From the NCBI GenBank assembly GCA_002869385.1, contig PKTB01000007.1, positions 80,729 to 144,728 on the forward strand: a DNA stretch of 64,000 nt, read 5' to 3'. The notes beneath the pieces were generated by a model, which had not been told where the DNA came from, searched no databases, and saw only the letters and a list, made by a program, of their open reading frames with translations. The first letter of the stretch is position 1; each line of letters begins with the position of its first letter. A program made the translations under genes and the position numbers. Below are positions 9,513 through 39,008 of the stretch, one piece after another. The stretch is from Marinilabiliales bacterium. GTDB lineage: Bacteria > Bacteroidota > Bacteroidia > Bacteroidales > ML635J-15.

Positions 9513-10736
9513 ATGGAAAAAAGAACAACACTAAATTTATTGTTTTATGTTAGAAAAACAAGATTGCTAAAAAATGGGGAAGCTCCTGTTTATATGCGAA
9601 TTACAGTTAACGGAGTTAGAAAAGATTTAGCACTAAATCAAGGGATTAATCCAAAATTGTGGGATTCTGTTAAAGGAAAAGCAAGTGGTAATTCAAAAAA
9701 CGCTCGTTCATTAAATTTGTATTTTGAAAGCATTAGAGTGCAGTTGCGTCAACACATGATAAATATGAGAGAGGAAAACATTCCAATTACTGCATTGACA
9801 TTAAAAAATAGATTTCAGGGAAAATCAACAAACGCAAAATACCTTATTGAAATGTTTAAAGAACATAATGAGAATATTCAAAAGCTTTCAGGAATTGATT
9901 TTGCACCCAATACAATAAGTAAATACAAAACAACACTGTTTTACACACAACTTTTTCTAAAATTGAAGTACAAATGTGATGATATAAATATAAAAGATGT
10001 AAATCATACATTTTTAACCAACTATGAATATTATCTCAAAACTGAAAGAAAATGTTCCCACAATACCGCAATGCGATATATCAAAGATCTTAGAAAGATT
10101 GTTAGAATTGCTCTTTCAAATGGATGGATTGGTAAAGACCCATTTGCAAATTATAAAATAAAATTTCATAAGGTTGACAGAGGTTTTCTAACTGAAGATG
10201 AATTACATGCTATTATAAATAAAACATTTACCATAAATCGATTAGAACAAGTTAAAGATTGTTTTTTATTTTCTTGTTTTACCGGATTGGCACATATAGA
10301 TTTAAAAAGATTAACACCTCAACATATTTTTAAAGATTCAAATAATAAATTATGGCTAAAAGTAAATCGTAAGAAAACAAACAGCTTATGCAGTGTTCCA
10401 TTATTACCAGTTGCTTTACAATTGATAGAGAAATATGAAAACAATCCATATTGTGTTGAAAATAATTTGTTATTACCTGTTCTTTCCAATCAATCGATGA
10501 ACGCATATCTAAAAGAGATTGCAGATATTTGCGGAATAACAAAAAGGCTTTCAAGCCACTTGGCAAGACACACATTTGCCACAACTATTACTCTTAATAA
10601 TGATGTCCCAATAGAAACTGTTAGCAAAATGCTTGGGCATTCTTCAATTAGTGTCACAAAAATATATGCCAGACTCCTAGACAAAAAAGTTGGTCGGGAT
10701 ATGCAACATCTTAATGATAAATTTACTTTATCTTAA
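9513..10736 (+). CDS. Tyrosine site-specific integrase of the Bacteroidota mobile-element type, with an N-terminal arm-binding domain
   Basis: The protein is 407 aa. The N-terminus LNLLFYVRKTRLLKNGEAPVYMRITVNG is typical of Bacteroidota integrases. Catalytic motifs are HLARHTFATT and LGHSSISVTKIYARL. Confidence 0.85.
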   Translation: MEKRTTLNLLFYVRKTRLLKNGEAPVYMRITVNGVRKDLALNQGINPKLWDSVKGKASGNSKNARSLNLYFESIRVQLRQHMINMREENIPITALTLKNRFQGKSTNAKYLIEMFKEHNENIQKLSGIDFAPNTISKYKTTLFYTQLFLKLKYKCDDINIKDVNHTFLTNYEYYLKTERKCSHNTAMRYIKDLRKIVRIALSNGWIGKDPFANYKIKFHKVDRGFLTEDELHAIINKTFTINRLEQVKDCFLFSCFTGLAHIDLKRLTPQHIFKDSNNKLWLKVNRKKTNSLCSVPLLPVALQLIEKYENNPYCVENNLLLPVLSNQSMNAYLKEIADICGITKRLSSHLARHTFATTITLNNDVPIETVSKMLGHSSISVTKIYARLLDKKVGRDMQHLNDKFTLS

Positions 10737-13414: not shown

Positions 13415-14434
13415 TCAGCCCCAATTTTTTATATTGCATGTTAGCGGCTGGGTTTCATTCAATTTAACAATTGGGTCAACCTTATCCTTTGTTCCCTCAA
13501 TTTGCTCTGCTGCTGCTTTACAACCACCTTTACACTTATCATATTTTTCACAATCATTACAATAATCAGGAATACTTGAAATCCAGCTTAATGAATAGTC
13601 TGAATACAACATATCCTCAAATGAATCATTATAAATATTGCCTAAATTTATCATAGAATGATTGCATAACCTAAAATTACCTTTATAATCTACTGTAAGA
13701 GGTTTCATTTTGGAATCATCTGGACACAGTCCAAAGTGAATGTTTGAATAATCACTTGGATTTATAATACAATGTGGAGTACAAACATTTGAAGTAATTA
13801 TCAATCCATATTTTGCTGCAAGATTATCAATAATATTATATCCTTTTCGTAACTCATTGTGGTTTAAAGTTAACTCTTTATAATGTGGATTATTACTCAA
13901 GTTATATCTATTGACAATTATGGTATTAAGATTATTCTCTTTAAGGAATAAAAATGTGTCCTGTATGGTTGATAGGTTATATTTTGTAAGTATTACTGTT
14001 GGTATAATTCTTCCATTATTTGCTAGAATTAATTTAATATTCTTTAATACATTTTTAAGGTATCCCTCTTTGCCTGACAGGAAATCATAGACTTTTTGAT
14101 TTATTGAATTTAATGTTATTTGAAAATCAACTCCAAAATTTATTAACTCCTTGTATTTATTGTCATTATTGATTGTAGCATTCGTTATTACAGCAACCTT
14201 TGAACCATTTATTTTTGCATGTAATATACATTCAATTAATAAATCTGAAAGCAAAGGTTCGCCACCAGAAATTGTAAGCTGTTTAATTTTAGCTTTGCTA
14301 TACAATTTTTTAATTGTATTAATTGACCGAGAAGAATCTGAATTACCTAGAATAGTTGAATTATAACAATACTTGCATTTTAAATTGCAACTATGGGTAA
14401 TCTCAAAGTTTATATTAAAAAACTGGCTTTTCAT
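13415..14434 (-). CDS. Radical SAM enzyme with a C-terminal SPASM-type Cys cluster
   Basis: The CX3CX2C motif lies in ITHSCNLKCKYCYN. The C-terminal cluster is CNDCEKYDKCKGGCKAAA. Confidence 0.8.
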   Translation of the reverse strand: MKSQFFNINFEITHSCNLKCKYCYNSTILGNSDSSRSINTIKKLYSKAKIKQLTISGGEPLLSDLLIECILHAKINGSKVAVITNATINNDNKYKELINFGVDFQITLNSINQKVYDFLSGKEGYLKNVLKNIKLILANNGRIIPTVILTKYNLSTIQDTFLFLKENNLNTIIVNRYNLSNNPHYKELTLNHNELRKGYNIIDNLAAKYGLIITSNVCTPHCIINPSDYSNIHFGLCPDDSKMKPLTVDYKGNFRLCNHSMINLGNIYNDSFEDMLYSDYSLSWISSIPDYCNDCEKYDKCKGGCKAAAEQIEGTKDKVDPIVKLNETQPLTCNIKNWG

Positions 14435-20868: not shown

Positions 20869-20887
20869 TTTAGTTTTTTTTTAATGA

Positions 20888-20990
20888 ACGCTCACGGTCG
20901 CAACTAATTTACTATTTTGATTTTAATTTATTCATTCGTAAAAGCCAAATTGTGAATTTGGCGGTGGTTCGGAAATGCGACTGCCGAACT
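20888..20990. repeat. Structured repeat, family B copy 2
   Basis: CTCACGGTCGCAACTA is followed by an AT-rich linker and then TAAAAGCCAAATTGTGAATTTGGCGGTGGTTCGGAAATGCGACTGCCGAAC (20939-20988). This matches 19215-19261. Confidence 0.7.
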
Positions 20991-21025
20991 TTTACCTATA
21001 TACCCCGCATTGTATATAGGTGTTG

Positions 21026-22408
21026 TTATAGCCAGTTCTTTTTTATATTCTTATACATATCCCAGATTATCCATTCTAATAATATTTTATTATGCGTACA
21101 CATTCTTTTATCTAATGACCATAAAGAATCACTTGAAATTTTAGCTTGATAAGCACAACCTCCACCACAAATTGCAATAGCTTCGCAATTTGTGCATTCT
21201 GGCATATTTAAAGGATAACGTTTAGACCACTCTTTAAACGATGAGTCAATTGAGATTTTTTCAGCATCCCATAATTCACTCTAATAGTATTCCTTATTGT
21301 AAAGAAATCCTTGACACGGGCCAATTAGACCATCAGGAGTAATAACGATTTGATTACCAATGGCACCACAATCTTTTTGATACAATTTCTTCTCAACAAA
21401 TGGTTTTAATTTGCGCATAATACGGTCTTCATACAAACCATTCTTTCTTAGAAATTCAAAGGTTTCAAGTAAACTTTTAGTTGCAATTGCAATATCAACA
21501 GATTGAGGATTAACAGTTTTAGGAAAGTCTATTAAGAAGTTGAAACCAAAACTATTAAAATTGAACTCAGTCATTAAATGTTTTGTTTGATCTTTTAGTG
21601 TTCTATAATTGTGTTTTCAAATAGTAACTGAAGCACTAATGTTTGAGATGCCTGCATCTCTTAGATTCTTAACACTTTTCTGAATTGATGAATAAGTACC
21701 TTTACCGCTAATGAATGGTCTAACAGAATCAGTAATGTCTTTGTTACCATCAATTGAAATTGATATTTGAACATTATGCTTCTCTAGAAAACTTGCATCT
21801 TCTTTTGTAATATCGGATGCATTCGTAATTATTGATAATTCAACATCATTTTTTAAAATTTCTCTCGCATAGGATATTCCTTTTTTTAAAGTTTTTTTAT
21901 TAAGAAATGGTTCACCTCCATAAAAGATTATCCTTCTATTTTTTTTTGAAATTTTTGAGAAAAGGTCAATAGATTTAGAAACTAAGTCTTCAGTCATAAA
22001 AACTTTTTTCGCATCTTCAGGAATAGAATTCTCAATATAACAATACTTACATTTCAAATTACAACTATCTGTAACAATTAGATACATAATCTGAATATCA
22101 ATGTTGGAGTGATTTTTAATATAAGCAGAATCTATCCGTTCGCGATTATTATACGTCGTAATAATTCCATTCTGAAAGAGAGACTCAAATAGTGATAGAA
22201 TTTTATTCTTATTTAAATCTGGGTTAACATGACAGAAATCTTCAAGAGTTTTATGCTTTTTTAAATTATTGAAAGTCGCAAATGATGATTTGTTTAAATA
22301 AACGACATTCATGTAATATGCATGATAAAGTGCATAAATATTTTCATTTTCATAAACGTGAAGGTATTTAGACTCCTTAATTTCTGTTGTAAAAGTTAAT
22401 TTATTCAT
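21026..22408 (-). CDS. Radical SAM/SPASM peptide-maturase-like enzyme with an N-terminal extension that may be an RRE. It is interrupted by TGA 21617-21619 and TAG 21281-21283.
   Basis: This is one 461-codon frame. The rSAM motif is VTDSCNLKCKYCYI. After the TGA the frame continues (KHNYRTLKDQTKHLMTEFNF...PDGLIGPCQGF). After the TAG it continues with the SPASM motif PECTNCEAIAICGGGCAYQA. Confidence 0.8.
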
Positions 22409-22643
22409 TTATTTTAATTATAATATCAGAAGACTCGACTTCTTTCTGTGGAATATAACAAGTACAAACATTCCCAGGACAGAAACATGCTGTTGTACAA
22501 ACACATGAAGGTTTCACGCAAACATTACCAGCACAAACACCTATACATGTTCCTACTGAATTATCACTTGAACCAATTGAATCAATAGATTGTTTTCGAT
22601 CAGAATCTGTAGGTGCATTAAATTTAATTTCTTGGTTTTTCAT
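22401..22643 (-). CDS. Cys-rich RiPP precursor-like peptide (80 aa)
   Basis: A polar leader is followed by GTCIGVCAGNVCVKPSCVCTTACFCPGNVCTCY, which has 9 Cys in about 30 residues. Its 3' end overlaps the maturase start by 8 nt. Confidence 0.6.
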   Translation of the reverse strand: MKNQEIKFNAPTDSDRKQSIDSIGSSDNSVGTCIGVCAGNVCVKPSCVCTTACFCPGNVCTCYIPQKEVESSDIIIKINE

Positions 22644-22649
22644 AATTTA

Positions 22650-23177
22650 TTATTTTATTGGAACAATTTCATTTTTCCATCGATTATATAATTTTTCAAA
22701 ATTTGACGCTATCTCTATATTAAGTTCTTTTCTTCTTAATTCAATGTATGGCTTTAAAGTTACAAAAGTATCTGTTGCAACCACAATTAGTGAATCAGAA
22801 GCAATTTGGTTATCATAGTATTTATTATTAATTCCTAGGGAAAGATTATCAAAGTATGCAACAATTCTTAAAATATTGGCTCTGAAAGTTGGGTTTTCTA
22901 AAAGCTTTTTAAGTTTCTGTTCAGAAATTGAATCTGTTCCAGAGCCTTTAGGAACTAGTTCACTTAATACTTTTCTATTGATTCCTTTCAATTCAGTTGT
23001 ATATATATCTATATATTGAAAAGTTGCATTTTTTCGATTCCAATCTGTTTGTTCAGCCATTTGTACTGTAGAAAACTTTAATTGTTTTATTAATAAGTAA
23101 ACTTGGTAAAACGCAAAAGGTATTCCGACTAGAAGTGCGACAACTTCAATATATGTTTTAATACATTCAATATTCAT
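22650..23177 (-). CDS. Hypothetical protein with an N-terminal transmembrane helix. It is the first gene of the RiPP block.
   Basis: The TM segment is VVALLVGIPFAFYQVYLLI. The remainder is a helical soluble domain. No family was recognised. Confidence 0.4.
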   Translation of the reverse strand: MNIECIKTYIEVVALLVGIPFAFYQVYLLIKQLKFSTVQMAEQTDWNRKNATFQYIDIYTTELKGINRKVLSELVPKGSGTDSISEQKLKKLLENPTFRANILRIVAYFDNLSLGINNKYYDNQIASDSLIVVATDTFVTLKPYIELRRKELNIEIASNFEKLYNRWKNEIVPIK

Positions 23178-23510
23178 ATTTTGATGATTTTATTACGTCT
23201 TTGTTTGAATTACAACTAACCGTAAAGTTAATTGTTAATTTATAGTTTCTTAACATTTTTAAATTATATCCACTTTTTCCTCAATTTACCATATCGTTAG
23301 CGAAAATATTCATCGATATTTGGGTCGAAGTGGGATTGGCTATAACTGTCTCGTGTATGAGCAGTAGCAGATTTCAATCCACTAAACTGTCAGATAGCAC
23401 CGAACTTTGATTTATAGTATTTTATTTCAAAATAGCACTGAACCCGCTATTGCTTATACACATTGTTGTATGCCCGTGCTTTTTCATTTTCTTTTCTGTC
23501 AGCGTTGGGG

Positions 23511-23577
23511 CAGCCATACTCTTTGGCAAGTTTTGGCTTGTGAGGCTGCTTTGAGCGACTTGCCAATGAGTATGGAT
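23511..23577. repeat. Long imperfect palindrome directly 3' of the TIR/caspase block
   Basis: CCATACTCTTTGGCAAGT and ACTTGCCAATGAGTATGG pair at 17 of 18 positions around a 26-nt loop. The palindrome lies about 15 nt after the stop of 23593-23964. Confidence 0.8.
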
Positions 23578-23592
23578 GCGAAGGGTTGGGAA

Positions 23593-23964
23593 TTAAAGTG
23601 AATCAATAAATTCCTTGATATTATCCCAAGTCCAAACTCTTGTGTAAACTCCTTCTAAGTCAGTTCTGTCATCATAATAAGCCCAAATTCCTCTAACTTT
23701 TTTTCCTTCTTCTCTTGCACATTGAATTTCCCATTTCTGACCGCTTGAAGTCAATGAATTCTTACTCACCAAAGCAATAACTCCATCAGAGCGCTTAATT
23801 CTAGTCCTTACTCGTTCTTTCCATTCTTTGTCATACGGTTGTTTTACTGACATGTCAATGTACTCGAATGGTGATTTCGTGTTTAAAGATTGACCTTTTA
23901 AAAGGTCTCTTTGTTTCTCATCTTCAATTGCAAATGCAATAAAAACTACTTTTTTATCTGCCAT
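23593..23964 (-). CDS. TIR-like (DUF1863 / ThsB-like) domain protein, soluble
   Basis: Motifs are KVVFIAFAIEDEKQRDLL...YIDMSVKQPYD...IALVSKNSLTSSGQKWEIQCAREEG. It is a paralog of 24956-25474. Confidence 0.7.
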   Translation of the reverse strand: MADKKVVFIAFAIEDEKQRDLLKGQSLNTKSPFEYIDMSVKQPYDKEWKERVRTRIKRSDGVIALVSKNSLTSSGQKWEIQCAREEGKKVRGIWAYYDDRTDLEGVYTRVWTWDNIKEFIDSL

Positions 23965-23982
23965 GATATTTTTATTTATGGT

Positions 23983-24954
23983 TTAAATTCTTTTGTCTTT
24001 TACTAGTCGCCAATAATGATAACCCAATGCTGTAAGTCTGCAAGTTTTTGAATGCATTGCTGCGAAATACATATGTTGTTCATCAACTGGAACAACTAAA
24101 CCCACACTTGCTAACTTTTGTAAATCCTTGAAGACCGAAACATTTTTCTCATTTGCATAAGGTTCTGTAAACTCATGCTCAATTGCTGGATCATTTGTGA
24201 ACTCAAAGGATGGGTCAAGTTGAAACTGTTCTTCAGGTGATGTAAAGTATTGATTTAATCGTCTAAGAATTTCAGGCGAAACCTGTGGTGAAACTGTCCT
24301 TAATGATGTAAAGCGAGTAATGTTTGTTTTAAATACTGGTCTTTGATCCCATGGACCAAGAGCTTGGTCAATGTAGGAATAAATGCTGCCTGGTGTAATA
24401 TGACCTCTCAAATCTGCTGCTCCGCCTTGCAATGCATCCAGCAAAAGATTCGTAAAAACACCATGTCCGTTAACTTCCATAGAAGCTTCGTCTTCCTTAC
24501 TCGCTGTTAGAATCGAGACGCCTTCTCCGATTTGAGCGTTTTGATTACCACCTAATTTCGGTGTACCAAATGCACCTGAATGGCAACAATCAAGTATGAT
24601 TACACGGTTTTTGGCTTTTGATTCATTTGCAATGTTCAAGATTTCATCCATTGAAATACCTTCATCATTCGCTTTGAAGTCTGGAGTAACGATTATTCCT
24701 CCTCCAGTATCATCAAAAAAGCCATGACCAGAGAAATAGAATAAAGCAGTTTCACAATCTCCAGCGAATAATTCTTTGATGTGTCCTTTTAATTCTCCTT
24801 TTGTTGGAACATCTGTTAGTAAACGAACGTCAAAATTTGGAGAACCATCTCCATTAGTTTCTAATGTATTTCCAAAAGCAGAAGCATCATTGATGCAGCC
24901 AAATAATTCTGATTTTGGGTAATTATTGATACCGACAACAAGTGCTTTTCTCAT
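23983..24954 (-). CDS. Caspase/metacaspase-fold (C14) cysteine peptidase with a C-terminal extension
   Basis: Motifs are KALVVGINNY...LINDA-type CINDASAF, the catalytic His in FYFSGHG, and the catalytic Cys in VIILDCCHSGAFG. The C-terminal domain of about 150 aa was not recognised. Confidence 0.85.
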   Translation of the reverse strand: MRKALVVGINNYPKSELFGCINDASAFGNTLETNGDGSPNFDVRLLTDVPTKGELKGHIKELFAGDCETALFYFSGHGFFDDTGGGIIVTPDFKANDEGISMDEILNIANESKAKNRVIILDCCHSGAFGTPKLGGNQNAQIGEGVSILTASKEDEASMEVNGHGVFTNLLLDALQGGAADLRGHITPGSIYSYIDQALGPWDQRPVFKTNITRFTSLRTVSPQVSPEILRRLNQYFTSPEEQFQLDPSFEFTNDPAIEHEFTEPYANEKNVSVFKDLQKLASVGLVVPVDEQHMYFAAMHSKTCRLTALGYHYWRLVKDKRI

Positions 24955-24955
24955 A

Positions 24956-25474
24956 TTATATTTTTTTAATGACCTTAGATAAATTATCCCAAGACCAAGT
25001 GATTACTTTTTTGCCTCTCAATTCTGGCGGAATTGCTCCTTTATTATTCTTTTTGATATGCATTCCGATTACTGGCAATCCTTCTTCCTTAGCACATTTT
25101 ATTTCCCATCTTGCACCGCTTGAATGCCAAGTGTTTTTGCTCAAAAGGACTATCATCCCGTCACAGGATTTGATTTTGGTACGGCATTTCTGTTTCCAAA
25201 TTTTCTCGTCCCATGGCTGTTTTACTGACATATCTACAAATGAGAAAGGCGACCGTTCATTTTTGGCTTGTTGCACCAAATAATCTCTGTATTGCTCATC
25301 TTCAATAGCAAAGCTGATAAAGATGCGTTTCTTTATTTCCTTACCTGAATCTTCTTCATCTTCAAAAAGAGCTTTCAAAAGAAGAGCAACTGCACCCGCA
25401 CCAATTATTACTGGCCACATATTCGACTTTTTTTTATTGTACTCATTCATATTAATTCTTTTCAGCGTTGGCAA
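24956..25474 (-). CDS. TIR-like (DUF1863 / ThsB-like) domain protein with an N-terminal transmembrane helix
   Basis: The TM segment is MWPVIIGAGAVALLLKALF. It is followed by RIFISFAIEDEQYRDYL...FVDMSVKQPWD...IVLLSKNTWHSSGARWEIKCAKEEG. The start may be the internal ATG near 25450. Confidence 0.7.
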   Translation of the reverse strand: MPTLKRINMNEYNKKKSNMWPVIIGAGAVALLLKALFEDEEDSGKEIKKRIFISFAIEDEQYRDYLVQQAKNERSPFSFVDMSVKQPWDEKIWKQKCRTKIKSCDGMIVLLSKNTWHSSGARWEIKCAKEEGLPVIGMHIKKNNKGAIPPELRGKKVITWSWDNLSKVIKKI

Positions 25475-26387
25475 AAAATAGCTCTTTTGGTTTTTTAGCG
25501 TTTGCCTTTGTGTCGGCAGAAACCAAATGTGCTATTTGTGCGGTCGTCTTTTTCAGCATGGCATACAACTAGTTTATGCCCGGATTTTAATTCTCCATAA
25601 TTATTAATAAATAACTTCACCTTAATTCTTGGTTATATCTATTCATTAAATAAAAACTCTGATTTCACACAAATCTGTTAAATCATTATAAATCCTATTT
25701 TTCTGCATCATTTTTTTGTAAATAAATAGAAATTATAACATTCACTTTCTTTCGCTCGAATTTACATTTTTTATTTCTGATAGAAGAATAAATCTTATAC
25801 AAAATTAACGTGGAATTGAAAAATCATAGTTTTATCCAGTTGAAATAAGGGTAAACCCTTAGCTTTTTTATAAAGAATTTGAAATTTAACAATAAAGTAG
25901 ACTAGAATTTATTTATTGTGTACTTAAATTTTAAACATCTAAAGAGACTTTCCAAACCACCAATTCCCAAAAGTTCTAATCAAATAAGATTACTGCTTAT
26001 TGTATCTGCGAAGCTGTAAAGCAAAAACAACTGCTACAACAGAAGATATCCCGAATTTTCAATTCGAGGATGAAAATAGATATTCCTAAGAGTTCAGAAA
26101 TGTTTTTTTTTATCCCTCCGGGAAGGTTGTGGTATTTCTGAACACTAAGGACTATCTCTGTTGAATAGCCGCTGTTTATGGCTTTAAGTTCAGCTGCAGA
26201 ACAAACGCAGAAAACTAATTAGATGTATAAACTTAAAAATAAATATTATGTGTAAAAACTGGAAAATATCAGAATTGAAAAGAAACGAACACCGCTTCAA
26301 ATCTATTATCTGTATAAACCATTTTGCAAGTTTTAACACATCTAAAATAGAAAATCAATTATTTATTAATCTTTAAATTTTATTATT

Positions 26388-26825
26388 ATGGCAACAGCAA
26401 TTGCAAAAAATGCGAATGAGAAAGTTTCAACTAAAGAAACAAATGTAAATTCAATTAGTATTAAAGCTATTGAAAAGAATGTTACTGCAAACAAAAAAGC
26501 AGAACAGGTAAAATCAATTGAGAAAAAGGTTGAAGAACCTGTTCAGAAAGTTGTTGAACCTGTTTTAACTCTCGAACAGAAAATCGAGAAAGTAGAAAAT
26601 CTCAAAACCTTAGTTGACAAAAGAGAAAAACTTGAAATGAGTCGTAAGAAATTACAATCTTTTGTTGTTGGAGCTAATCAATTTAGTGAAAACATTGTAT
26701 TAACAGATGAAAACGGCAACACTTTTAAAACTTCAAATACTGAAGTATTTACAAAAGTTGTTGAGGCTATCAATACTACTTTGGTTGGCAAAATCAGTGA
26801 GATTGAACAACAAATCCAGTTTTAA
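26388..26825 (+). CDS. Hypothetical Lys/Glu-rich protein (mobile-element context)
   Basis: The ORF is 145 aa with a low-complexity charged N-terminal half. No family was recognised. Confidence 0.4.
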   Translation: MATAIAKNANEKVSTKETNVNSISIKAIEKNVTANKKAEQVKSIEKKVEEPVQKVVEPVLTLEQKIEKVENLKTLVDKREKLEMSRKKLQSFVVGANQFSENIVLTDENGNTFKTSNTEVFTKVVEAINTTLVGKISEIEQQIQF

Positions 26826-26831
26826 ATTTTT

Positions 26832-26853
26832 GAGGTCTGTTCCGGCAGACCTC
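26832..26853 (+). terminator. Hairpin after 26388-26825
   Basis: GAGGTCTG-TTCCGG-CAGACCTC is followed by a T-rich stretch. Confidence 0.5.
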
Positions 26854-27022
26854 ATTTAATCTTTTCAATTATGAACACTTTAAAGACTAAAACAAATAAA
26901 ATCGGTAAAACGTCTAAAAGAAAGAAACAGAAAGAAGTTTTAAAATCAATGATTAGCGAAAATCCGAACATTGACAAGCTTATTAAAAGTTTAAACATTG
27001 TATTAACTAAAGCATAATAATC

Positions 27023-27961
27023 ATGAACACAAACAAAATATACGAGCGTATAACAGCTACGATAATCGAAATGTTAGAATAACATAAAAACAATAATTTT
27101 TCTGAGTCATGGTACAGTTTAACTGGAGAAGTATTTGCACGTAATATTGTAACAAATCATGTTTACAATGGGATTAACCAATTATTGTTGGGCTATCTTA
27201 AACGCAAAAGAAATTACACTCTAAACCGTTGGTTAACTTTCAAACAAATTCAAAATTATAATGCCCGAATAATCAAAGGCAGTAAAACTGCAATGGTAGT
27301 TTACACCTCTACTTTGTATATTGATGAAGAAACAGGACAAAATATTACACGAAAAGTTGAAGAACTAATTAGAAAAAAACAATCAATAGATCATTTAAAT
27401 ATTAAGAAAATCGGATATTTAAAAGATTACAAAGTCTTTAATGTAAATTGTGTTGAAGGATTACCAGCGGAGTTTTACGAGCAATCAGAACTTGATAATT
27501 TGATAGAAATTGAAAGAGACGAAAGAGCAGAAAAGCTTGTACATAATCTTGAAGTTAATATTTGTTATGAGGCTCAAAATGAGGCTTATTACAGACCTTC
27601 TGATGATACGATATTTATGCCATTGCCAAAACAATTTGTTTCAAAAGAAGCGTTCTTATCAGTTTTGATGCATGAAGCATCACATTCGACAGGGCATCCT
27701 TCAAGATTAAACCGACCTTTAAACAATGTTTTTGCTTCACCTGCGTATGGATTTGAAGAGCTCATAAGTGAGTTGTCATCAGCCTTTATTATGGCTTATT
27801 TAGGTTATGAAAGTAGAATTACAGACAATGTTGCATATATTGAAAGTTGGTTACAAGCAATGAAGAATGATAAAAAGTTTATTGTTTCAGCAGCATCCCA
27901 AGCACAAAAAGCAGCAGACTATATTTTACAATCTGAAAATGCTAATGAAGTAGCAGCTTAA
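27023..27961 (+). CDS. ArdC-like antirestriction protein, with an N-terminal ssDNA-binding DUF1738-type domain and a zincin metallopeptidase domain. It is interrupted by an in-frame TAA at 27080-27082.
   Basis: The N-terminus reads MNTNKIYERITATIIEMLE*HKNNNFSESWYSL...VYNGINQLLLGY...WLTFKQIQNYNARIIKGSKTAMVVY. The metallopeptidase motif is LMHEASHSTGH. Confidence 0.7.
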
Positions 27962-31589: not shown

Positions 31590-33896
31590 TTATTTTTCTT
31601 CTTCCTCCTTAATATCATGATATATGTTGTAGGTGCTATTTATTGCGTCTACCACATCTATTAATTTAGAACCAAAAAACATATTAAAAGCACCAGTAGT
31701 CGATATTACTGGGTTGATAACTCTTTGATATACTCCTTTTTTTTCTATCCCACGATAATCACTGCCTGTGATAATTGTTTTAAAAGAATTTACAACAACT
31801 GTTGGAGGTAGAAAATAAATAGGAACTATTGGTGCTATGTATTTATTAGCAATTTCATAAGATGTTTCTCCTACTTGTTCAATAATGCTTCTTCCTCCTC
31901 TTAAATAATTCTTTTTAATACTATTATATATAGCATCGTTGGACACAACTCCAGATGGTTTATCTGCTCCAATAGTATGTTCTGTTTTTGTGTAACTATT
32001 TTTAGGTTCTTTACTTCTTCCTTCACAATAAACTTGAAATACCCAATCCTCATCTTTACCAGTACCTGCGTTACGATTATAAACCTCTCCAATCCTTGAA
32101 ATATCTTTGCCATGACGTTCCATTTTGCGGACCAATCTTCTTTGCTTCCTTTCAGCCTTGTTCCTACTTTCATATAATCCGTAATTATCAATATACTTTA
32201 CAGGATTTTGAAATCCATATCTGTATGGTGTCCAACTAGGTGCAATATCTAGGATTGGGTCAACACTTATCCAGTTACTTAAATCTGAATCATAATACCT
32301 TGACCCAAAGTAAGTATAATCAGTTTCTGTATCAAGCTCTTTTGCAGTAAATTTATATCTACTATCAAAACTCTTTGTACGTTGTTGTACAAATATCTCT
32401 CCATAAGGAAGATATTGAATATGTTCTTCAGTTTTCCCATCAATATTTGTAATAAAACTACTACTTCCAAGATGATCTGGATGGTAAAAATATCGCATGT
32501 TTTCAGGATTATCCATTAAGTCATATGCAGGAATTAACTCATCATCTATTCTGAATCTGCCGCTAAACACTGAACACGCTATACTACTACGAACCATTTT
32601 TCTCAGATCATTTGCTATACTATTTGCATTACCAAAGATGAAGTCTATAGGTAACTCAGTGGGTGCAAAATCAGCTGATCCAAAACAGCCTCCAATTTTA
32701 CTGCAAATCCTTTCACCTTCAATAAAATAGTGTTTTGTATAATCAGTTTCTGTCATTACCATAAATGGGCTAGCGTATAGAGTTTTTTGTAAAATTGCGC
32801 TTGAATGTACTACATGAGCATTTAATTGCATTAATACTTCCGGACCACTAAACTTCCAAGTTCTTTCTCCTCCGGCATCGTAAAGATACGAAGAAATATG
32901 ATTCAACTCACCACTATCATGTACAGAAAGTAATCTATTCTCTTCATCCCAGCACAAATTTCTTTCATTATTAGCAGTTAATGGAGTACTTCTTCTAATC
33001 ATATTCCCATTTAAATCCCACTCAAATACTTTACCTGTAATTGAACTTACATTATGAGGCCGATCTTCATAAGCATATTTTCTACTATAGCTAATAGTAT
33101 TTGTTACTCCATTAATTAAATTTTGAGAAACAAGACGTTTAGTCCTAATATTCCCAGATGAAGAATATGTCATTTGTAGAGCATAGTCCATTGTTCCGTT
33201 ACCATACGATGAAAAATCACCATAAGATTCCTCTAATCTGTTCAAATCATCGTATTTGAAGCTATAATGAAATACTCCTCCAAAATTCACGTTAACATAA
33301 TCTCCTGTATTATCAATCTGCTTAATATTACCAACAAAATCATATAAATAGTCTAAATTTTGCATTAACAAACCTGTACTTTCTTTACTTATAAGATTGT
33401 CTAACCTTAAAGTCAAATCATTATATGAATAATCACTCATTGTTCCATTACCATATTCGATGTGAGTTTTTCTTCCATACTTATCGTATTCAGTTTTATC
33501 AATATACTTAAATGTTTCCCCGGCTTTAAGTCCTTTCATAGAATATAAATCTCCACCTTTATCGTATTTATATGCTACTGTTTCTCCGTCAGGATATTTC
33601 ATTGCTAATAACCTGTTCCAACTATCGTAAGCCCATTGCATTTTAAAAGTGTATGCTTCACCACCAGGGACAACATAAGTGTGGATATTTTCAATAATCT
33701 CGCCCATATTACCATAAGTAAATGTTTGAACGCCCGATGCATCCTGTTGTTTAACTAAACGTCCACTTTTATTTCCCGTTCCTGCAGTACCATATTCATA
33801 ATAGACATTCATTTCAGGATTTAAAGGATAAGAAATTTGTTTTAAACGACAATCTTCATATTCATAATGTATCAATTCTCCTACTGCATTTAGATT
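31590..33896 (-). CDS. Giant toxin frame, segment 4 of 4: YD/RHS repeats, RHS core end and a 194-aa C-terminal polymorphic toxin domain
   Basis: YD repeats (YEYGTAGTGNKSGRL, YKYDKGGDLY, etc.) are present. The core-end motif is HPDHLGSSSF...YLPYGE...RYKFTAKELDTETDYTYFGSRYYDSDLSNWISVDP...YRYGFQNPVKYIDNYGL. It is in-frame with the upstream segment across TAA 33897-33899. Confidence 0.8.
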   Translation of the reverse strand, partial: NLNAVGELIHYEYEDCRLKQISYPLNPEMNVYYEYGTAGTGNKSGRLVKQQDASGVQTFTYGNMGEIIENIHTYVVPGGEAYTFKMQWAYDSWNRLLAMKYPDGETVAYKYDKGGDLYSMKGLKAGETFKYIDKTEYDKYGRKTHIEYGNGTMSDYSYNDLTLRLDNLISKESTGLLMQNLDYLYDFVGNIKQIDNTGDYVNVNFGGVFHYSFKYDDLNRLEESYGDFSSYGNGTMDYALQMTYSSSGNIRTKRLVSQNLINGVTNTISYSRKYAYEDRPHNVSSITGKVFEWDLNGNMIRRSTPLTANNERNLCWDEENRLLSVHDSGELNHISSYLYDAGGERTWKFSGPEVLMQLNAHVVHSSAILQKTLYASPFMVMTETDYTKHYFIEGERICSKIGGCFGSADFAPTELPIDFIFGNANSIANDLRKMVRSSIACSVFSGRFRIDDELIPAYDLMDNPENMRYFYHPDHLGSSSFITNIDGKTEEHIQYLPYGEIFVQQRTKSFDSRYKFTAKELDTETDYTYFGSRYYDSDLSNWISVDPILDIAPSWTPYRYGFQNPVKYIDNYGLYESRNKAERKQRRLVRKMERHGKDISRIGEVYNRNAGTGKDEDWVFQVYCEGRSKEPKNSYTKTEHTIGADKPSGVVSNDAIYNSIKKNYLRGGRSIIEQVGETSYEIANKYIAPIVPIYFLPPTVVVNSFKTIITGSDYRGIEKKGVYQRVINPVISTTGAFNMFFGSKLIDVVDAINSTYNIYHDIKEEEEK

Positions 33897-36800
33897 TTAT
33901 GTCTGGACAGTAATAATGTTTCCTGCAGGATCATAAGTGTAATTGGTACTATTTGCATCAGGATGTACTCTTCTGGTTAACCTCCCAAGCATGTCATATT
34001 CATATAATGTTGAATTGTTCTCAGGATCTGTGGAAACTAATAATTCACCAAGAGGAGAATATTCAAAAGTTGTTTGTACATCTAATGGTTGTAAAATGGT
34101 TGTTTGTAGGTTGTTAGCATTATTAAAAACCTTTGTTGCATGACCATTTTTATCTGTAATTTCAGTAATAAAACTTGGTAATCCAAACGCATCTGTTCCA
34201 ATCTGATAGTTGTATGAAACACTTGTCCCATCAGGAGCTGTGACGGATAATAGTCTGTCTAAGACATCATATACAGTAATTGTAGGATTTAAATCACCAA
34301 ACACCGAATATTGTATAATTCCAGATTGATCATAATTTTCAGTAGATGGTTGCGATGAAGAAATAAGCCTGTTATAATTATCATACTTTAGATTCCCAGA
34401 GACAACAACTTTGTAGTTCCCATTAATTTCAGAAGTTTTTTTACTTTGAACAATTCTTCCAAAACCATCTGAAATATTTACTGTGATAAATTCATTACCT
34501 TGAATATGAGAGTCATAATGCTTTGTCATTGCCCAAAAATTTCTATTAGAAGTCACTTCGTCCCAATATTCGTATTTAATTGTGTAAGGGATATTATTAA
34601 TTACTTCATTTGGCCCGGTAATGGTCTCTATACGACCATCCGTAAGATATGTATACAGTAATGTGGTTCCGGTATGACTTTCTACCACTAAAGGCACACC
34701 TAATGCATAGTCATATGTCGTATGCATCTCATTACCCCAGTAATCATAAATAATTACAGGATAAGAATGTACAACTTCATCATAAGTGTAATGATATGTC
34801 ATTCTTTCTAAATTTGCATCTACAGGATTTTCAATTCTTTCAATATTACCGTATTGATCATAATATAAGCTTGTTTGAGCATGTGTGTCACCATAAAAGT
34901 TTGTGATTCCAATTAAATTTCCATATTCATCGTAATCTCCTTTGGATTTTCTTAATAATGTAGACTGATTATCATATACATGCAGTTCATCAACCAAATT
35001 CATCAAGTATAAATCAGTATTCGGAAGATAAGTAATAATAGCTATTACGTCATCATCAGAAGTCCCATAAAGATTTAAATTGTCATATCTGATAATATTT
35101 CCATACGAACCATGAGTATAAATCTTTTCTGTAGTAACAGTGTTAGCACTTGTTGCATCATAATACCAATTAATTACAGAATCTAACGCTGGATAGAATG
35201 CTCCAAAACATACTGCTTCATCTTCAGGAACAATGACACCTGTTAAAATATCCTTTTTCTTCCAGATGTATATGTTTTCAATTAATGGGTGATTATTTGC
35301 ATCAAATGTGACCTCTCTTGTCTTTATCCCATTAAAAATATAGTTTTCATTATTATATTCTTCAAGAGTAGTACGATATACATTTTCATCCTCAAAACTA
35401 TCCAGTTGATTTGTGTAAACCTGCGCAAATCCATAAGATTCTCTTTCAAGTCTATGATATTTTCCATTTTCGTAATTAAATGTGTAATATAGTTTTTGTG
35501 GATCATCGCCCATATCATCAAATCCATTATTTAGAATTAAAGAAGTCAGTAGCCATTTTGATTCAGGATTTTCAATATCTGGATAAGATTTTTTATAATC
35601 TAATGTGTAAGTGCCTAACCCAGGAGTTGTAATATTCCTTAGAATATTTGCTTTTTGAGGAATTGCAAATTTTGCTTTAATATCAGCACCTTCAATCCAT
35701 AATTTATCTATAGCTCCGTCAGCATTTATATCCATAAATGAGCTTCTTTCCCTACTAATAGAATTCCCAATGTCTGCATAGCCTGTAATTGTCATTTTGT
35801 ATAATCCTATTGTAAAACCTAATGTGCCAGCAAAATTAGATACAATATTTGATGATTTGGATTCTGCTAATTTATTATCAAAGTCCTCATATAATACCAA
35901 AGGTATGAAATCAGACCCGGTATTTATTAAAGCTTTTAAATCATTTATTCCAGCTTCTGCTGGCACAAAAATGAAATCCACAAGACCATCATTATTGATG
36001 TCATCGATTGAAAATTTCAAATTACTCGTACTTCCATTTGCACCTAAGCCAAATGCAAGACTATAATGTTCTTTATTAAGAAATTCTGCATTTATTGTTA
36101 AGCTCCCAGCATTTGTATTTGTTTTAGAGATTTTAGCATCGCTGTCTGAAATTATAATAGTTCTAGGTTGAGAGAATCCATATCCAAGATTATATTCAAT
36201 TGTTAAATTAAAATCACTCTGAGTATTTATTACATCTGTTGATTCAGTGACACGATCAGGCAAACCATCACCATTCATATCTACATAGAGTACTTTTGAT
36301 TTTGAAGTACTAAAATTTGCTCCAACTCCAAATGAGCAATCCAGGTTGTCAAGATGGCAATTCCCCTGCGCAGAAGTACCTGTGTTTTCTAGTAAAGTCG
36401 CTTTAACACCAGCTGATGCACCATGAGTATATCCATTTGCCTTTGAAACAAGCTTTTCTTCAAATTCTAACATATCATCTGAGATTCCACCCATTGCATT
36501 TGAATATTGAATTGATTTTGTTGTTACGATGTCAGGGTATCTATCTCCATTCATGTCTCTAAAATCAGATAGCCCTTTTGTGTTTGTATATGTAAATGTA
36601 TAGCCTAGATTAGCCAAAGGCATTGAGCCAATACAAATGGAATTATTAATTACTTTGTTCATCTTATTTATAACAGGTGCTTCAAAATAATCTGGAGATA
36701 ATGTGAGGCTTGCTTCCGTAATAGTCTCATCAGAACCAAAAACTTCAGTTTGACCTTTTTCAGCACCGACTCCTGAACAAATTCTATCAATACTCACCTC

Positions 36801-38417
36801 TGCACTTAATGCATAATCAATCCATCTATTATTTTGACAATCTGCTGTCATTATTGCAAAAGGATTAATATTGTCTAAATCTATACCATTTGAGTTTAAA
36901 TCACTTTCTGCGTCTTCATATGTAGACTCATCTGTATATTCATTAAAATCAATATTTTCAAAGAATCCTTCTGCCGTTGCAGTTTCATTAACATGCAATA
37001 ATGATTCGTCTATTGGATATACTTCACCATTATTACTTCCATCAAGATAAGAAAACTGGCCCCAACCTCTACAGAAGTTACCAAATTTCGAATATTCATC
37101 AGATAATCGTGAATAAAATCCTGCTCTATATAAATAAGTGTTATAAGCATAAATATGTTTTACATCTGCTGCAATAATCATATCAGGAGTAATATCTTCT
37201 ATATTCGTATGATAATCAAAAAATACTTCTGTACCATCACTAGGGATATTAAAGCTTATTGAATACCAACTCATATCTGCAGGCAGTGTTCCATTTACAA
37301 TTGGAATTTCTTTACTTACAAGCAATTTTCTATTTGTTTTCGCTGTTAATACAATTACACCTGTCGCGTCAAAATCTTCTATAAAGCTTAATGATGGAAT
37401 AACAGTATGATCATCAGCTTGAAATACAACAGGATTTGATAGTTTAACTACATTCGGATATATAGACATATCTAATGATGGGTAAAACTTAGAATCCTCC
37501 AATGGTGGTTTATTAGTTGGATCATCATAAGAAGTGTACTCTATCGAGGCGAAGAAATCAATATTACTCCATTTGATATTTGATTGTGTTTCAAGTTTAA
37601 ACTTTATCATTTCACCTTCTTTAACAACAAGTTGTAGTTCTGGCTCAATAGGTGAATCATAAGTAATATTGCAAATATTAGGGCTTTCTACTACAATTTC
37701 ATCTTCATATTCATCTCCCTCTTCATCCAATAAAGCAATTGGTATCAAAGTGACTATTAGTGGAAACTCTTTGTAATGAAAAATTGTATAATGCATATCA
37801 TCACTTTGTGCTAAACCACTTGAATTTAGATTTGAATTTATAATAACAGTACCATCATAAGGAACTGTAAAATAGTTTCCATCTTGAATAACTACTTCAT
37901 CTTTATATGTATAGCTGTAAATAAAGTCTTCATTTGCATCAATCATTGCATAATTATGATCATATTCTTCCATTGTAATATTTGGTCCTTTAATATCAAT
38001 ATCCCAATCAATATCATCAAAACCATAGTTCTTTTCTGCATGTAATCTAAAATAAACCACATCTCCATACGACAACCTTAAAGAACTTTCTATGGGATGA
38101 ATATCAAAATTATCAGCTTCTATAACTCCCACGATCCTATCATCTTCAGAAAATGAACCATTTTTATATACATCAATAGTATAAAATACTATACCATTAT
38201 TTACTTGATCTCCTTCAATTCTTTTTATTTCGCATGTTAAAGTATATGTATCTATGCGATTAGGTATAGGGCCAGGTGCTTTAAACATTATTACCGGGTC
38301 TCTTCTCGTTTTGGTTTCTTCATCATCAGTAATCTCGACATCAACCACGCTCCCATTGTATGAAATACTATAACAAGGATCTATTCCCATTTCTTGTTGA
38401 TCTTCAGAACCCATTAT
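33897..38417 (-). CDS. Giant toxin frame, segment 3 of 4: TcB-like middle region with FG-GAP/VCBS-type motifs followed by YD/RHS repeats
   Basis: FG-GAP/VCBS-type motifs are DMNGDRYPDIV, DMNGDGLPDRV, DINNDGLVDFI and DINADGAIDKL. These are followed by many YD repeats (YDEYGNLIGITNFYGD, YYDQYGNIERIENP, YTYDPAGNII). Confidence 0.8.
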   Translation of the reverse strand: MMGSEDQQEMGIDPCYSISYNGSVVDVEITDDEETKTRRDPVIMFKAPGPIPNRIDTYTLTCEIKRIEGDQVNNGIVFYTIDVYKNGSFSEDDRIVGVIEADNFDIHPIESSLRLSYGDVVYFRLHAEKNYGFDDIDWDIDIKGPNITMEEYDHNYAMIDANEDFIYSYTYKDEVVIQDGNYFTVPYDGTVIINSNLNSSGLAQSDDMHYTIFHYKEFPLIVTLIPIALLDEEGDEYEDEIVVESPNICNITYDSPIEPELQLVVKEGEMIKFKLETQSNIKWSNIDFFASIEYTSYDDPTNKPPLEDSKFYPSLDMSIYPNVVKLSNPVVFQADDHTVIPSLSFIEDFDATGVIVLTAKTNRKLLVSKEIPIVNGTLPADMSWYSISFNIPSDGTEVFFDYHTNIEDITPDMIIAADVKHIYAYNTYLYRAGFYSRLSDEYSKFGNFCRGWGQFSYLDGSNNGEVYPIDESLLHVNETATAEGFFENIDFNEYTDESTYEDAESDLNSNGIDLDNINPFAIMTADCQNNRWIDYALSAEVSIDRICSGVGAEKGQTEVFGSDETITEASLTLSPDYFEAPVINKMNKVINNSICIGSMPLANLGYTFTYTNTKGLSDFRDMNGDRYPDIVTTKSIQYSNAMGGISDDMLEFEEKLVSKANGYTHGASAGVKATLLENTGTSAQGNCHLDNLDCSFGVGANFSTSKSKVLYVDMNGDGLPDRVTESTDVINTQSDFNLTIEYNLGYGFSQPRTIIISDSDAKISKTNTNAGSLTINAEFLNKEHYSLAFGLGANGSTSNLKFSIDDINNDGLVDFIFVPAEAGINDLKALINTGSDFIPLVLYEDFDNKLAESKSSNIVSNFAGTLGFTIGLYKMTITGYADIGNSISRERSSFMDINADGAIDKLWIEGADIKAKFAIPQKANILRNITTPGLGTYTLDYKKSYPDIENPESKWLLTSLILNNGFDDMGDDPQKLYYTFNYENGKYHRLERESYGFAQVYTNQLDSFEDENVYRTTLEEYNNENYIFNGIKTREVTFDANNHPLIENIYIWKKKDILTGVIVPEDEAVCFGAFYPALDSVINWYYDATSANTVTTEKIYTHGSYGNIIRYDNLNLYGTSDDDVIAIITYLPNTDLYLMNLVDELHVYDNQSTLLRKSKGDYDEYGNLIGITNFYGDTHAQTSLYYDQYGNIERIENPVDANLERMTYHYTYDEVVHSYPVIIYDYWGNEMHTTYDYALGVPLVVESHTGTTLLYTYLTDGRIETITGPNEVINNIPYTIKYEYWDEVTSNRNFWAMTKHYDSHIQGNEFITVNISDGFGRIVQSKKTSEINGNYKVVVSGNLKYDNYNRLISSSQPSTENYDQSGIIQYSVFGDLNPTITVYDVLDRLLSVTAPDGTSVSYNYQIGTDAFGLPSFITEITDKNGHATKVFNNANNLQTTILQPLDVQTTFEYSPLGELLVSTDPENNSTLYEYDMLGRLTRRVHPDANSTNYTYDPAGNIITVQT

Positions 38418-39008
38418 TTAAAATACTGGGTTTCCATCTTGGTCTGGAGTATTAAAGAATACCGTACCATTATTAACATAGTCAATAAATCCATCAGAAT
38501 TAATATCTTCAAAATATTTGTTTGTTGATTCTGTATTACTATTACGATTGTAACTAGCAAAAACAGCAGGCAATGCATCACCTCCATTAACTTCACCTCC
38601 AAAGCTATGAGCTTTTGAAGATGATTCTCCAAGTGATTGCAAGCCATCAATTATATGCATTTCATTATTGAAAAGTAATTGATTATTTTCGTTAAGGTAT
38701 CCTTTATATAGTTCAACTTGTCCATTAAACAAAAGTAGTTTGTCCAGTAAACCATCACCATTGATATCCATTATACTAACCTGTTCTACATTATTTCCAG
38801 TAGTATAGGTATATGTTCCTCCAATAGTTTGAGCTTTAGAAAATATATCTGCTCCTAAACCAAATCCAATTGTTCCACCAAAAGAATAAGACTTGCTGTG
38901 GTTTCTTCCCAAGCTTTGCTCATCACCTTCAAGATCAATACCAAAAATATTGTTACTAAAACTATTAGGTTCCTCTACAGATGAGATTATTACATCTTCT
39001 GTTTCAAA
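38418..39008 (-). CDS. Giant toxin frame, segment 2 of 4: FG-GAP/VCBS-type repeats
   Basis: Motifs are DINGDGLLD and DINSDGFIDYV. The segment is bounded by in-frame TAA 39009-39011 and TAA 38418-38420. Confidence 0.7.
   Translation of the reverse strand, partial: FETEDVIISSVEEPNSFSNNIFGIDLEGDEQSLGRNHSKSYSFGGTIGFGLGADIFSKAQTIGGTYTYTTGNNVEQVSIMDINGDGLLDKLLLFNGQVELYKGYLNENNQLLFNNEMHIIDGLQSLGESSSKAHSFGGEVNGGDALPAVFASYNRNSNTESTNKYFEDINSDGFIDYVNNGTVFFNTPDQDGNPVF

Follow-up and report, generated by a model that had tools for sequence, protein, structure and literature searches.

The window analysed here is a stretch of 64,000 nucleotides (nt) from contig PKTB01000007.1 (assembly GCA_002869385.1) of a Marinilabiliales bacterium, and it contains a block of three minus-strand genes in which a caspase-like protease is flanked by two TIR proteins of the ThsB type, paralog A and paralog B. 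Judged by its sequence relationships, the block is very probably a two-sensor TIR-caspase phage defence cassette of type IV Thoeris. Its three proteins belong to the expected families, their catalytic residues are intact, the C-terminal domain of the protease is conserved, and the gene order recurs in other genomes. The open reading frames (ORFs) lie at 24956-25474 (172 residues when read from a TTG), 23983-24954 (323 residues) and 23593-23964 (123 residues), and are separated by 1 nt (24955) and 18 nt (23965-23982). The G+C content is 36-38% in the block and 27-30% in its flanks.

An earlier note, made from the letters of the window, had described three packed minus-strand genes with gaps of 1 and 18 nt, DUF1863/ThsB hallmarks in two of the products and protease motifs in the third. 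The ORF list confirms the packing, and all of the quoted motifs are found in the translations: IFISFAIEDE and VFIAFAIEDE, DMSVKQPWD and DMSVKQPYD, and SSGARWEIKCAKEEG and SSGQKWEIQCAREEG in the TIR proteins, and FYFSGHG and ILDCCHSG in the protease. The profile searches and the PADLOC run proposed in that note agree with it. The Pfam family ThsB_TIR (cut-off 21.2 bits) matches both TIR proteins and Peptidase_C14 matches the protease, all three above the curated cut-offs, and the ThsB and caspase models of PADLOC match the same proteins. The effectors of Thoeris types I, II and V, namely SIR2-SLOG, Macro-TM and DUF2270, are absent from the block and from the neighbouring genes.

In type IV Thoeris, a short infection-sensing TIR protein makes N7-cyclic ADP-ribose (N7-cADPR), and this molecule activates a caspase-like protease that cuts proteins after arginine, so that the infection is aborted (Rousset et al. 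2024, bioRxiv 10.1101/2024.10.24.620036). The same paper validates the systems of Pseudomonas sp. 1-7 and E. coli 328 as phage defence, and reports that defence is abolished by PsTIR E79Q and by PsCaspase C129A. The C-terminal domain of the effector has no assigned function there and is hypothesised to bind N7-cADPR. The MacSyFinder rule of the paper asks for a TIR_2 or ThsB_TIR gene no further than one gene away from the protease and accepts additional TIRs, for which its Table S1 has a separate column; in that table, Algoriphagus faecimaris DSM 23095 is entered as TIR, protease and TIR with consecutive gene numbers. The locus of this strain (L008) has two TIR genes flanking a protease that is 90% identical to that of the window over the full length, and the block can therefore be placed in the catalogued type IV family. 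The protease is tied to the PsCaspase/ThsE family through this Table S1 homolog, not through a direct alignment with PsCaspase. Two ThsB_TIR genes adjoin the protease on the same strand, as the adjacency rule describes. The proposal of a type IV-like Thoeris system, with a TIR signal that switches on the protease, is thus supported by homology, by the catalytic glutamate and by the adjacency of TIR and protease. A C-terminal extra domain and the presence of more than one TIR gene are already on record, and no description was found of the anchor-like TIR paralog or of the bounding palindromes.

Relatives of the protease number 565 in a scan of one genome per species, and the counts out of 80 loci given below refer to the best 80 of these 565 (L005-L084). 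The closest protease is that of Algoriphagus sp. oki45, with 99% identity at the protein level. A same-strand TIR gene adjoins the protease in 74 of the 80 loci, and about 25 loci have two or three TIRs. The order seen in the window (anchored paralog A, protease, paralog B) is found in six loci, with about six more close variants; co-occurrence of the three genes in other genomes had been named beforehand as a test of the idea, and the six loci with the exact order bear it out. The protease is almost fixed in length and shows 57-99% identity across the 80 loci, whose sources are Bacteroidota, Firmicutes, Patescibacteria, Proteobacteria and archaea, and the protease of the window is 57-60% identical to TIR-adjacent proteases of Gammaproteobacteria. 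Strong conservation of the protease together with divergent TIRs would fit one fixed signal-effector pair with diversifying sensors. The protease identity across distant phyla, including archaeal and Patescibacteria metagenome-assembled genomes, is unusually high for a defence effector.

Paralog B (thsB, 23593-23964, minus strand) is a soluble ThsB-type TIR protein of 123 residues that scores 35.3 bits (E 1.6e-8) against ThsB_TIR and is 49% identical to paralog A. Its catalytic glutamate is E79, numbered as in the PsTIR E79Q mutant, and that of paralog A is E106. The column of E106 and E79 holds the sole invariant acidic residue in an alignment of ten TIR proteins from five classes. Class A has an N-terminal extension that is hydrophobic or amphipathic, class B has 123 residues, class F has about 127 residues and is chiefly from Firmicutes, class G has about 136 residues and is found in Gammaproteobacteria and others, and class C, with about 195 residues, is a canonical TIR_2. 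The neighbouring TIR classes are 22-65% identical to paralog A.

Paralog A (thsB, 24956-25420, minus strand) is a ThsB-type TIR protein of 154 residues with an N-terminal hydrophobic helix, identified by Pfam (ThsB_TIR, 55.4 bits, E 8.8e-15), by PADLOC and by a conserved start. The true start is most likely the ATG at 25420, with a product that begins MWPVIIGAGAVALLLKALF and continues with EDEED. This start is preferred because 101 of 120 homologous clusters, formed at 90% identity, begin M[W/L]P, and the public copy of the contig also annotates a gene of 154 residues. The first description of this gene holds for the TIR domain and the hydrophobic N-terminal helix, and the start moves from the TTG at 25474 to the ATG at 25420. 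A single N-terminal membrane anchor is predicted, by hydropathy alone, at codons 2-19 (WPVIIGAGAVALLLKALF; 25364-25417, minus strand), where the Kyte-Doolittle mean over 17 residues is about 2.1. A hydrophobic N-terminal helix of 17-19 residues (mean at least 1.6) is kept in 116 of the 120 clusters, and its sequence is variable. The helix is followed by an acidic patch and then a basic patch; lysine and arginine are found behind it and not ahead of it, which fits a cytoplasmic TIR domain.

The anchor-like TIR type is real and recurrent, since about 12 of the best 80 species-level loci carry it and more than 100 protein clusters contain it. A transmembrane or anchored ThsB is mentioned neither in the type IV paper nor in the systematic TIR survey nor in the literature searched, a coverage that is incomplete and gives weak evidence of novelty. 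The claim that a pair of anchored and soluble TIRs is undescribed holds in part: multiple TIRs are catalogued in Table S1 of Rousset et al., and the anchor-like paralog was not found described.

The thsE-like effector (23983-24954, minus strand) is a caspase-like C14 protease of 323 residues with the dyad H77 and C124. Residues 1-196 match Pfam Peptidase_C14 with 69.9 bits (E 3.4e-19). H77, C123 and C124 are all invariant in alignments of 14 and 28 sequences (A1 and A3), and in an alignment of 81 sequences (A5) C123 and C124 are invariant and H77 is nearly so. C124 is aligned with the catalytic cysteine of metacaspases in the SCHSG motif. The AlphaFold2 model built on the 81-sequence alignment has a predicted local distance difference test score (pLDDT) of 89 and a predicted template modelling score of 0.84. 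In a Foldseek search with the full-length model, the best matches are MALT1, metacaspases, the orthocaspase GSU0716 and caspases, all through the N-terminal domain (E 2e-13 to 1e-10 for the N-terminal 200 residues). These proteins share the N-terminal 200-residue fold and the His/Cys dyad with the window protease, but sequence identity is 17-22% and the C-terminal domain is unrelated (Ig-like in MALT1). When the three proteins were searched by sequence against the PDB, the only matches were metacaspases (E 1e-5), and neither a solved type IV effector nor a close TIR was among them. NCBIfam NF047832 (EACC1-associated caspases) gives 111.3 bits, below its cut-off of 140, and covers the protease domain alone. 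The C14 caspase-fold protease with an intact dyad that had been read from the motifs is thus borne out by the Pfam match, by conservation of the dyad and by a modelled caspase/paracaspase fold.

The C-terminal domain of the protease (residues 200-323; 23986-24357, minus strand) is conserved and is presumed to sense the signal. Its roughly 125 residues have no match in Pfam, and W202, R205, Y314 and W315 are among those that are invariant. The domain is modelled at a pLDDT of 87-97, so that the AlphaFold check suggested for it gave a confident fold; an AlphaFold run on 28 sequences, with the domain at low confidence, was discarded for the 81-sequence run. The earlier note had held the extra domain to be undescribed. 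It is present and lacks a Pfam family, but it is known from the type IV effector. A search of residues 200-323 against 1.84 billion representatives gave 631 clusters, nearly all of them proteins of 310-340 residues with the domain at the C-terminus, and the domain appears essentially confined to this one architecture. Odd-length matches that might have represented other architectures look like fragments or chimeric gene calls and were rejected.

Pairs of TIR and protease genes are also carried by other mobile elements. On Vibrio-like and Proteus contigs (L085-L090, L221), a TIR of 137 residues and a protease of 315 residues lie at the end of Tn7-like elements, where the pair adjoins TnsD/TnsE and a DUF6338 gene. 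In integrons of E. coli plasmids (L220, NZ_CP041112.1; L222, NZ_AP038229.1), the gene after a 123-residue TIR with 72.5% DNA identity to paralog B encodes a caspase and is cut off by ISCR2. The cassette stands directly after the aadA1 attC in an estX-aadA1 array. Of 5426 complete E. coli genomes, 6 have plasmids with this arrangement.

By analogy with the Pseudomonas system, a TIR protein would detect infection and convert NAD+ to a cyclic ADP-ribose isomer, which is N7-cADPR in the studied case. The signal would bind the protease, probably via the C-terminal domain, and the active protease would cleave many cellular proteins after arginine, so that the infected cell dies or stops growing ahead of phage release. 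The identity of the signal and activation through the C-terminal domain are carried over from that system and may differ here. Two TIR paralogs may widen the range of phage cues, with both feeding one highly conserved effector; the anchored paralog A would act at the membrane's inner face, and paralog B, which is soluble, in the cytoplasm.

The block shares with the type IV systems of Rousset et al. a short ThsB-type TIR beside a C14 protease of about 315-323 residues with the same C-terminal domain, a glutamate at position 79 (in paralog B, as in PsTIR) and an intact His/Cys dyad. It differs in its Bacteroidota host, in having two TIRs against one in the validated systems, and in the predicted hydrophobic N-terminal anchor of paralog A, which is absent from the text of that paper. 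Multi-thsB Thoeris systems (type I with several ThsB; type III) likewise have divergent TIR sensors beside one effector. Islands with 6-7 ThsB are described in Bacteroidota, where multi-ThsB loci are enriched, and the transmembrane helices discussed in that work are those of effectors and not of ThsB (Yirmiya et al. 2025, bioRxiv 10.64898/2025.12.03.692087). In contrast to these systems, the effector of the window is a caspase-like ThsE and not SIR2-SLOG, Macro or DUF2270.

Several points weigh against the two-sensor type IV account. Signal molecule, trigger and phenotype are all taken over by extrapolation from the Pseudomonas system, the validated type IV systems have one short TIR, and in the literature searched, systems with the anchored paralog are known from sequence alone. 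The helix of paralog A has a conserved lysine and could be an oligomerisation or protein-docking helix instead of an anchor. One TIR cluster occurs with different effectors (Yirmiya et al. 2025, 10.64898/2025.12.03.692087), and therefore the TIR clade alone does not fix the signal. It is also conceivable, if rather improbable, that one TIR protein senses infection and that the other, most likely paralog A, is a degrader or buffer of the signal that would prevent autoimmunity, or an independent membrane effector that depletes NAD+. TIR domains are known NADases, simple TIR-protease pairs occur in 24 plus 17 of the best 80 loci, and paralog A forms its own clade with a hydrophobic or amphipathic N-terminal extension, all in line with such a division of roles. 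However, the catalytic glutamate and the core motifs are common to both paralogs, and multi-ThsB loci of other Thoeris types are generally read as having multiple sensors. Moreover, the anchored paralog is the only TIR in L050, and because loci of this type have no other TIR, it can presumably signal alone.

A non-immune role, in which TIR adaptors and a metacaspase-like protease form a housekeeping or developmental module for cell death or protein processing, is highly improbable. Bacterial orthocaspases do also occur outside defence contexts, but close homologs of the block are catalogued as phage defence and the family is validated as such. The location on a mobile island beside other defence genes and the related copies on Tn7-like elements, in integrons and in restriction-modification blocks also speak against it. 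The two-sensor phage defence cassette of type IV Thoeris remains the preferred reading of the block.

Two members of one hairpin family bracket the cassette, which lies within a mobile island. The downstream element, D (23490-23592, minus strand), was identified by folding and covariation. It is an imperfect hairpin with arms at 23510-23531 and 23558-23579 (22 nt, 91% complementary) and a CA-rich loop of 26 nt, followed by CCAACGCTGA (23499-23508), and it folds with a free energy of -30 kcal/mol (z = -5.0 against shuffles). The upstream element, U (25453-25550, minus strand), is of the same family and consists of a hairpin with arms at 25476-25493 and 25520-25537, a T-run and then CCAACGCTGA (25462-25471); about 40 nt separate its end from the start codon of paralog A. 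The 10-mer CCAACGCTGA stands after each hairpin and has only these two sites in the window. Covariance models give D 109 and 89 bits, and model R2 gives U 75 bits. A palindrome at 23511-23577 had been proposed as a boundary of the cassette, which agrees with the arms of D and is extended by the related hairpin at the other end. D has no U-tract and the next letters are CCCCAACGCUGACAG, whereas the U-type stem is followed by a run of six T; a simple terminator scan of the window called neither element. With a broader covariance model, only U and D were found in the window, and none at about 50 other genes. A weak match at 20882-20970 (E 0.08) resembles a different short element downstream of the L010 protease and was not counted.

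D is kept 3' of the last TIR gene in 11 loci, with compensatory changes in 11 of 17 pairs. The DNA homology between the window and these 11 loci spans only the three genes and the hairpin, and in several loci it ends within a few bases of the post-hairpin motif; with L005, it extends about 165 nt beyond the hairpin. The stretch of about 850 nt upstream of U (25551-26387) has no ORF of at least 50 residues on either strand and contains a long imperfect inverted repeat (26073-26101 and 26134-26162). A similar gene-free stretch of 2 kb lies ahead of the U hairpin in L091.

Beyond the window, a pattern scan of metagenome contigs (loci L100-L179), followed by a covariance model over 563 kb of related metagenome contigs, gave at least 125 copies of the hairpin. 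About 30 contigs have two to five copies, which are 0.3-8 kb apart and on a single strand in every locus compared. The family consensus of about 100 nt consists of GCCAACGC, an imperfect hairpin and again GCCAACGC; the stem sets CACATTTG against CAAAAGAG and has two A.A mismatches, and the loop is CA-rich. In the model-fitted alignment, 95% of the cells are paired, against 70% in shuffles and 30-54% with slid partners, and 17 of 17 pairs covary. A same-strand ORF ends at most 200 nt upstream of 50 copies (47 of the 64 copies with at least 600 nt of upstream sequence), and most of the 45 ORFs upstream of hairpins encode restriction-modification or other defence proteins. Part of the cargo lies outside defence, such as a TonB receptor and a cation efflux protein in L125. 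U-type copies lie 20-100 nt before the start or operator of the next operon, and near-identical ones precede other defence operons. L014 and L091 have a second, upstream copy, and the two copies bracket a restriction-modification operon together with the Thoeris genes. In L151 the order is type I restriction-modification with anchored TIR, protease and TIR, then a hairpin, a HARE-HTH protein, a hairpin, an MmeI-like enzyme and a hairpin.

Four contigs have XerD-like recombinases (Phage_integrase and Phage_int_SAM_4) that are co-oriented with the hairpins and lie just upstream of the first one (L136 8531-9388; L172 1936-3555; L171 733-1611; L131 13358-14458). The integron-integrase insertion is absent from them, as judged by eye. 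In L172, a perfect palindrome of 22 bp is present between the recombinase gene and the hairpin. Rfam has no family for the hairpins and gave only a chance microRNA match below threshold, and no description of the family was found in the literature searched, whose incomplete coverage makes this weak evidence of novelty. The hairpin is absent from the paralog B/paralog A/protease loci and from gammaproteobacterial loci. No empty site or excised circle was found, and a look-up of the DUF4760 neighbour gave only the same context.

The units ending in these hairpins resemble integron cassettes with attC sites in being co-oriented, in ending in imperfect hairpins of 60-100 nt that keep structure over sequence, and in their defence-rich cargo; defence cassettes are described in chromosomal integrons (bioRxiv 10.1101/2024.07.02.601686). 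In contrast to integrons, no IntI-type integrase was seen near the hairpins, and the units are often whole multi-gene operons with their own regulators. A canonical attC is ruled out because the two outer boxes repeat in the same direction, as CCCAAC ... CCCAAC in the window and as GCCAACGC ... GCCAACGC in the consensus, and do not form the inverted pair RYYYAAC and GTTRRRY that closes the base of an attC hairpin.

The hairpins may be transcription terminators or insulators, or stabilisers of 3' untranslated regions, that are carried along with transferred operons and have no role in DNA mobility, a reading whose chance falls somewhat short of even. Same-strand ORFs end 10-25 nt before most copies, the orientation is always that of the flanking genes, and the six-T run and the position of U-type copies ahead of the next operon would suit this role. 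However, D lacks the U-tract, the terminator scan called neither copy, and the mismatches, the loop composition and the two or three GCCAACGC boxes are conserved across unrelated operons, which is unusual for terminators. U-type copies also often have no upstream gene, and in the window the sequence upstream of U is non-coding. The hairpins could instead be recombination sites of an integron-like cassette system of Bacteroidota, in which defence operons move as hairpin-ended units, possibly via the XerD-like recombinase; this is possible but doubtful. It is favoured by the many copies in single-strand arrays, the strong covariation and the cargo of mostly restriction-modification and other defence genes. 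The two copies that bracket different cargo in each of the window, L014 and L091 point the same way, as do the abrupt ends of homology at the post-hairpin motif and the placement of both window copies next to the cassette. In addition, four contigs have a co-oriented recombinase at the head of the hairpins, and E. coli plasmids carry a related TIR-caspase pair as a true integron cassette. Against recombination sites stand the direct repeats, which exclude a canonical attC, the recombinases without the integron-integrase insertion, and the search for an empty site or excised circle that found none. Thoeris and restriction-modification genes share one unit with no hairpin between them in L151 and others, the homology with L005 continues past the hairpin, and terminators would equally be co-oriented with genes.

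The hairpins would represent an undescribed structured family of about 100 nt that delimits co-oriented cassettes, mainly restriction-modification, abortive infection and Thoeris operons, in Bacteroidota-type genomes. In the most far-reaching version they would be the recombination sites of an integron-like exchange system with neither attC nor IntI, which is unlikely. A smaller speculative proposal is that the ThsB with the N-terminal anchor would sense phage entry close to the membrane.

The region is suggested to be an integrated mobile element by a tyrosine integrase of Bacteroidota type (Arm-DNA-bind_5/SAM_5/Phage_integrase) at 9513-10736 and, at 27185-27961, by an anti-restriction protein that is ArdC-like and contains a zincin domain. 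In L091, the same integrase type is present beside the Thoeris block. Two adjacent genes at 44429-46532, probably a Menshen defence system, are recognised by PADLOC as NsnB (E 6e-107) and NsnC (E 3e-93). Downstream of the cassette are a DUF4760 membrane protein (22650-23177), a Cys-rich peptide of 80 residues (22401-22643) and a radical SAM gene (21026-22408). The stretch 21026-23177 looks like a maturation cluster for a ribosomally synthesised and post-translationally modified peptide. A second radical SAM/SPASM gene lies at 13415-14434. The window also contains a cluster of large RHS-repeat and SpvB-like proteins (RHS and SpvB toxins; 31590-41429), and many proteins sorted by the type IX secretion system (Por_Secre_tail), which mark the host as Bacteroidota.

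The window is near-identical to NODE_51 of ERZ794999 in ENA. Compared with the public copies L095 and L096, the stretch 20983-27954 has 9 differences in 7 kb, all G>T or C>A. Those at 21282 and 21619 make in-frame stops that split the otherwise intact radical SAM gene of 460 residues (21026-22408), and that at 23675 alters residue 97 of paralog B, where the window has Tyr and the public copy has Ser. Such a pattern suggests oxidative damage or a sequencing error and not real pseudogenisation.

As a defence system, the block adds a member to type IV Thoeris and leaves existing knowledge unchanged. The subfamily of paralog A is large and conserved, and it places an anchor-like TIR and a soluble TIR on one strongly conserved protease. 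This pairing is suited to asking how different sensors come to share one signal, and whether it matters where a sensor is located. If the hairpins are terminators, they would be an unusually conserved and cargo-linked kind. If they serve for exchange, they would account for the assembly of defence islands in Bacteroidota, and new defence genes could be sought with them as a simple sequence handle.

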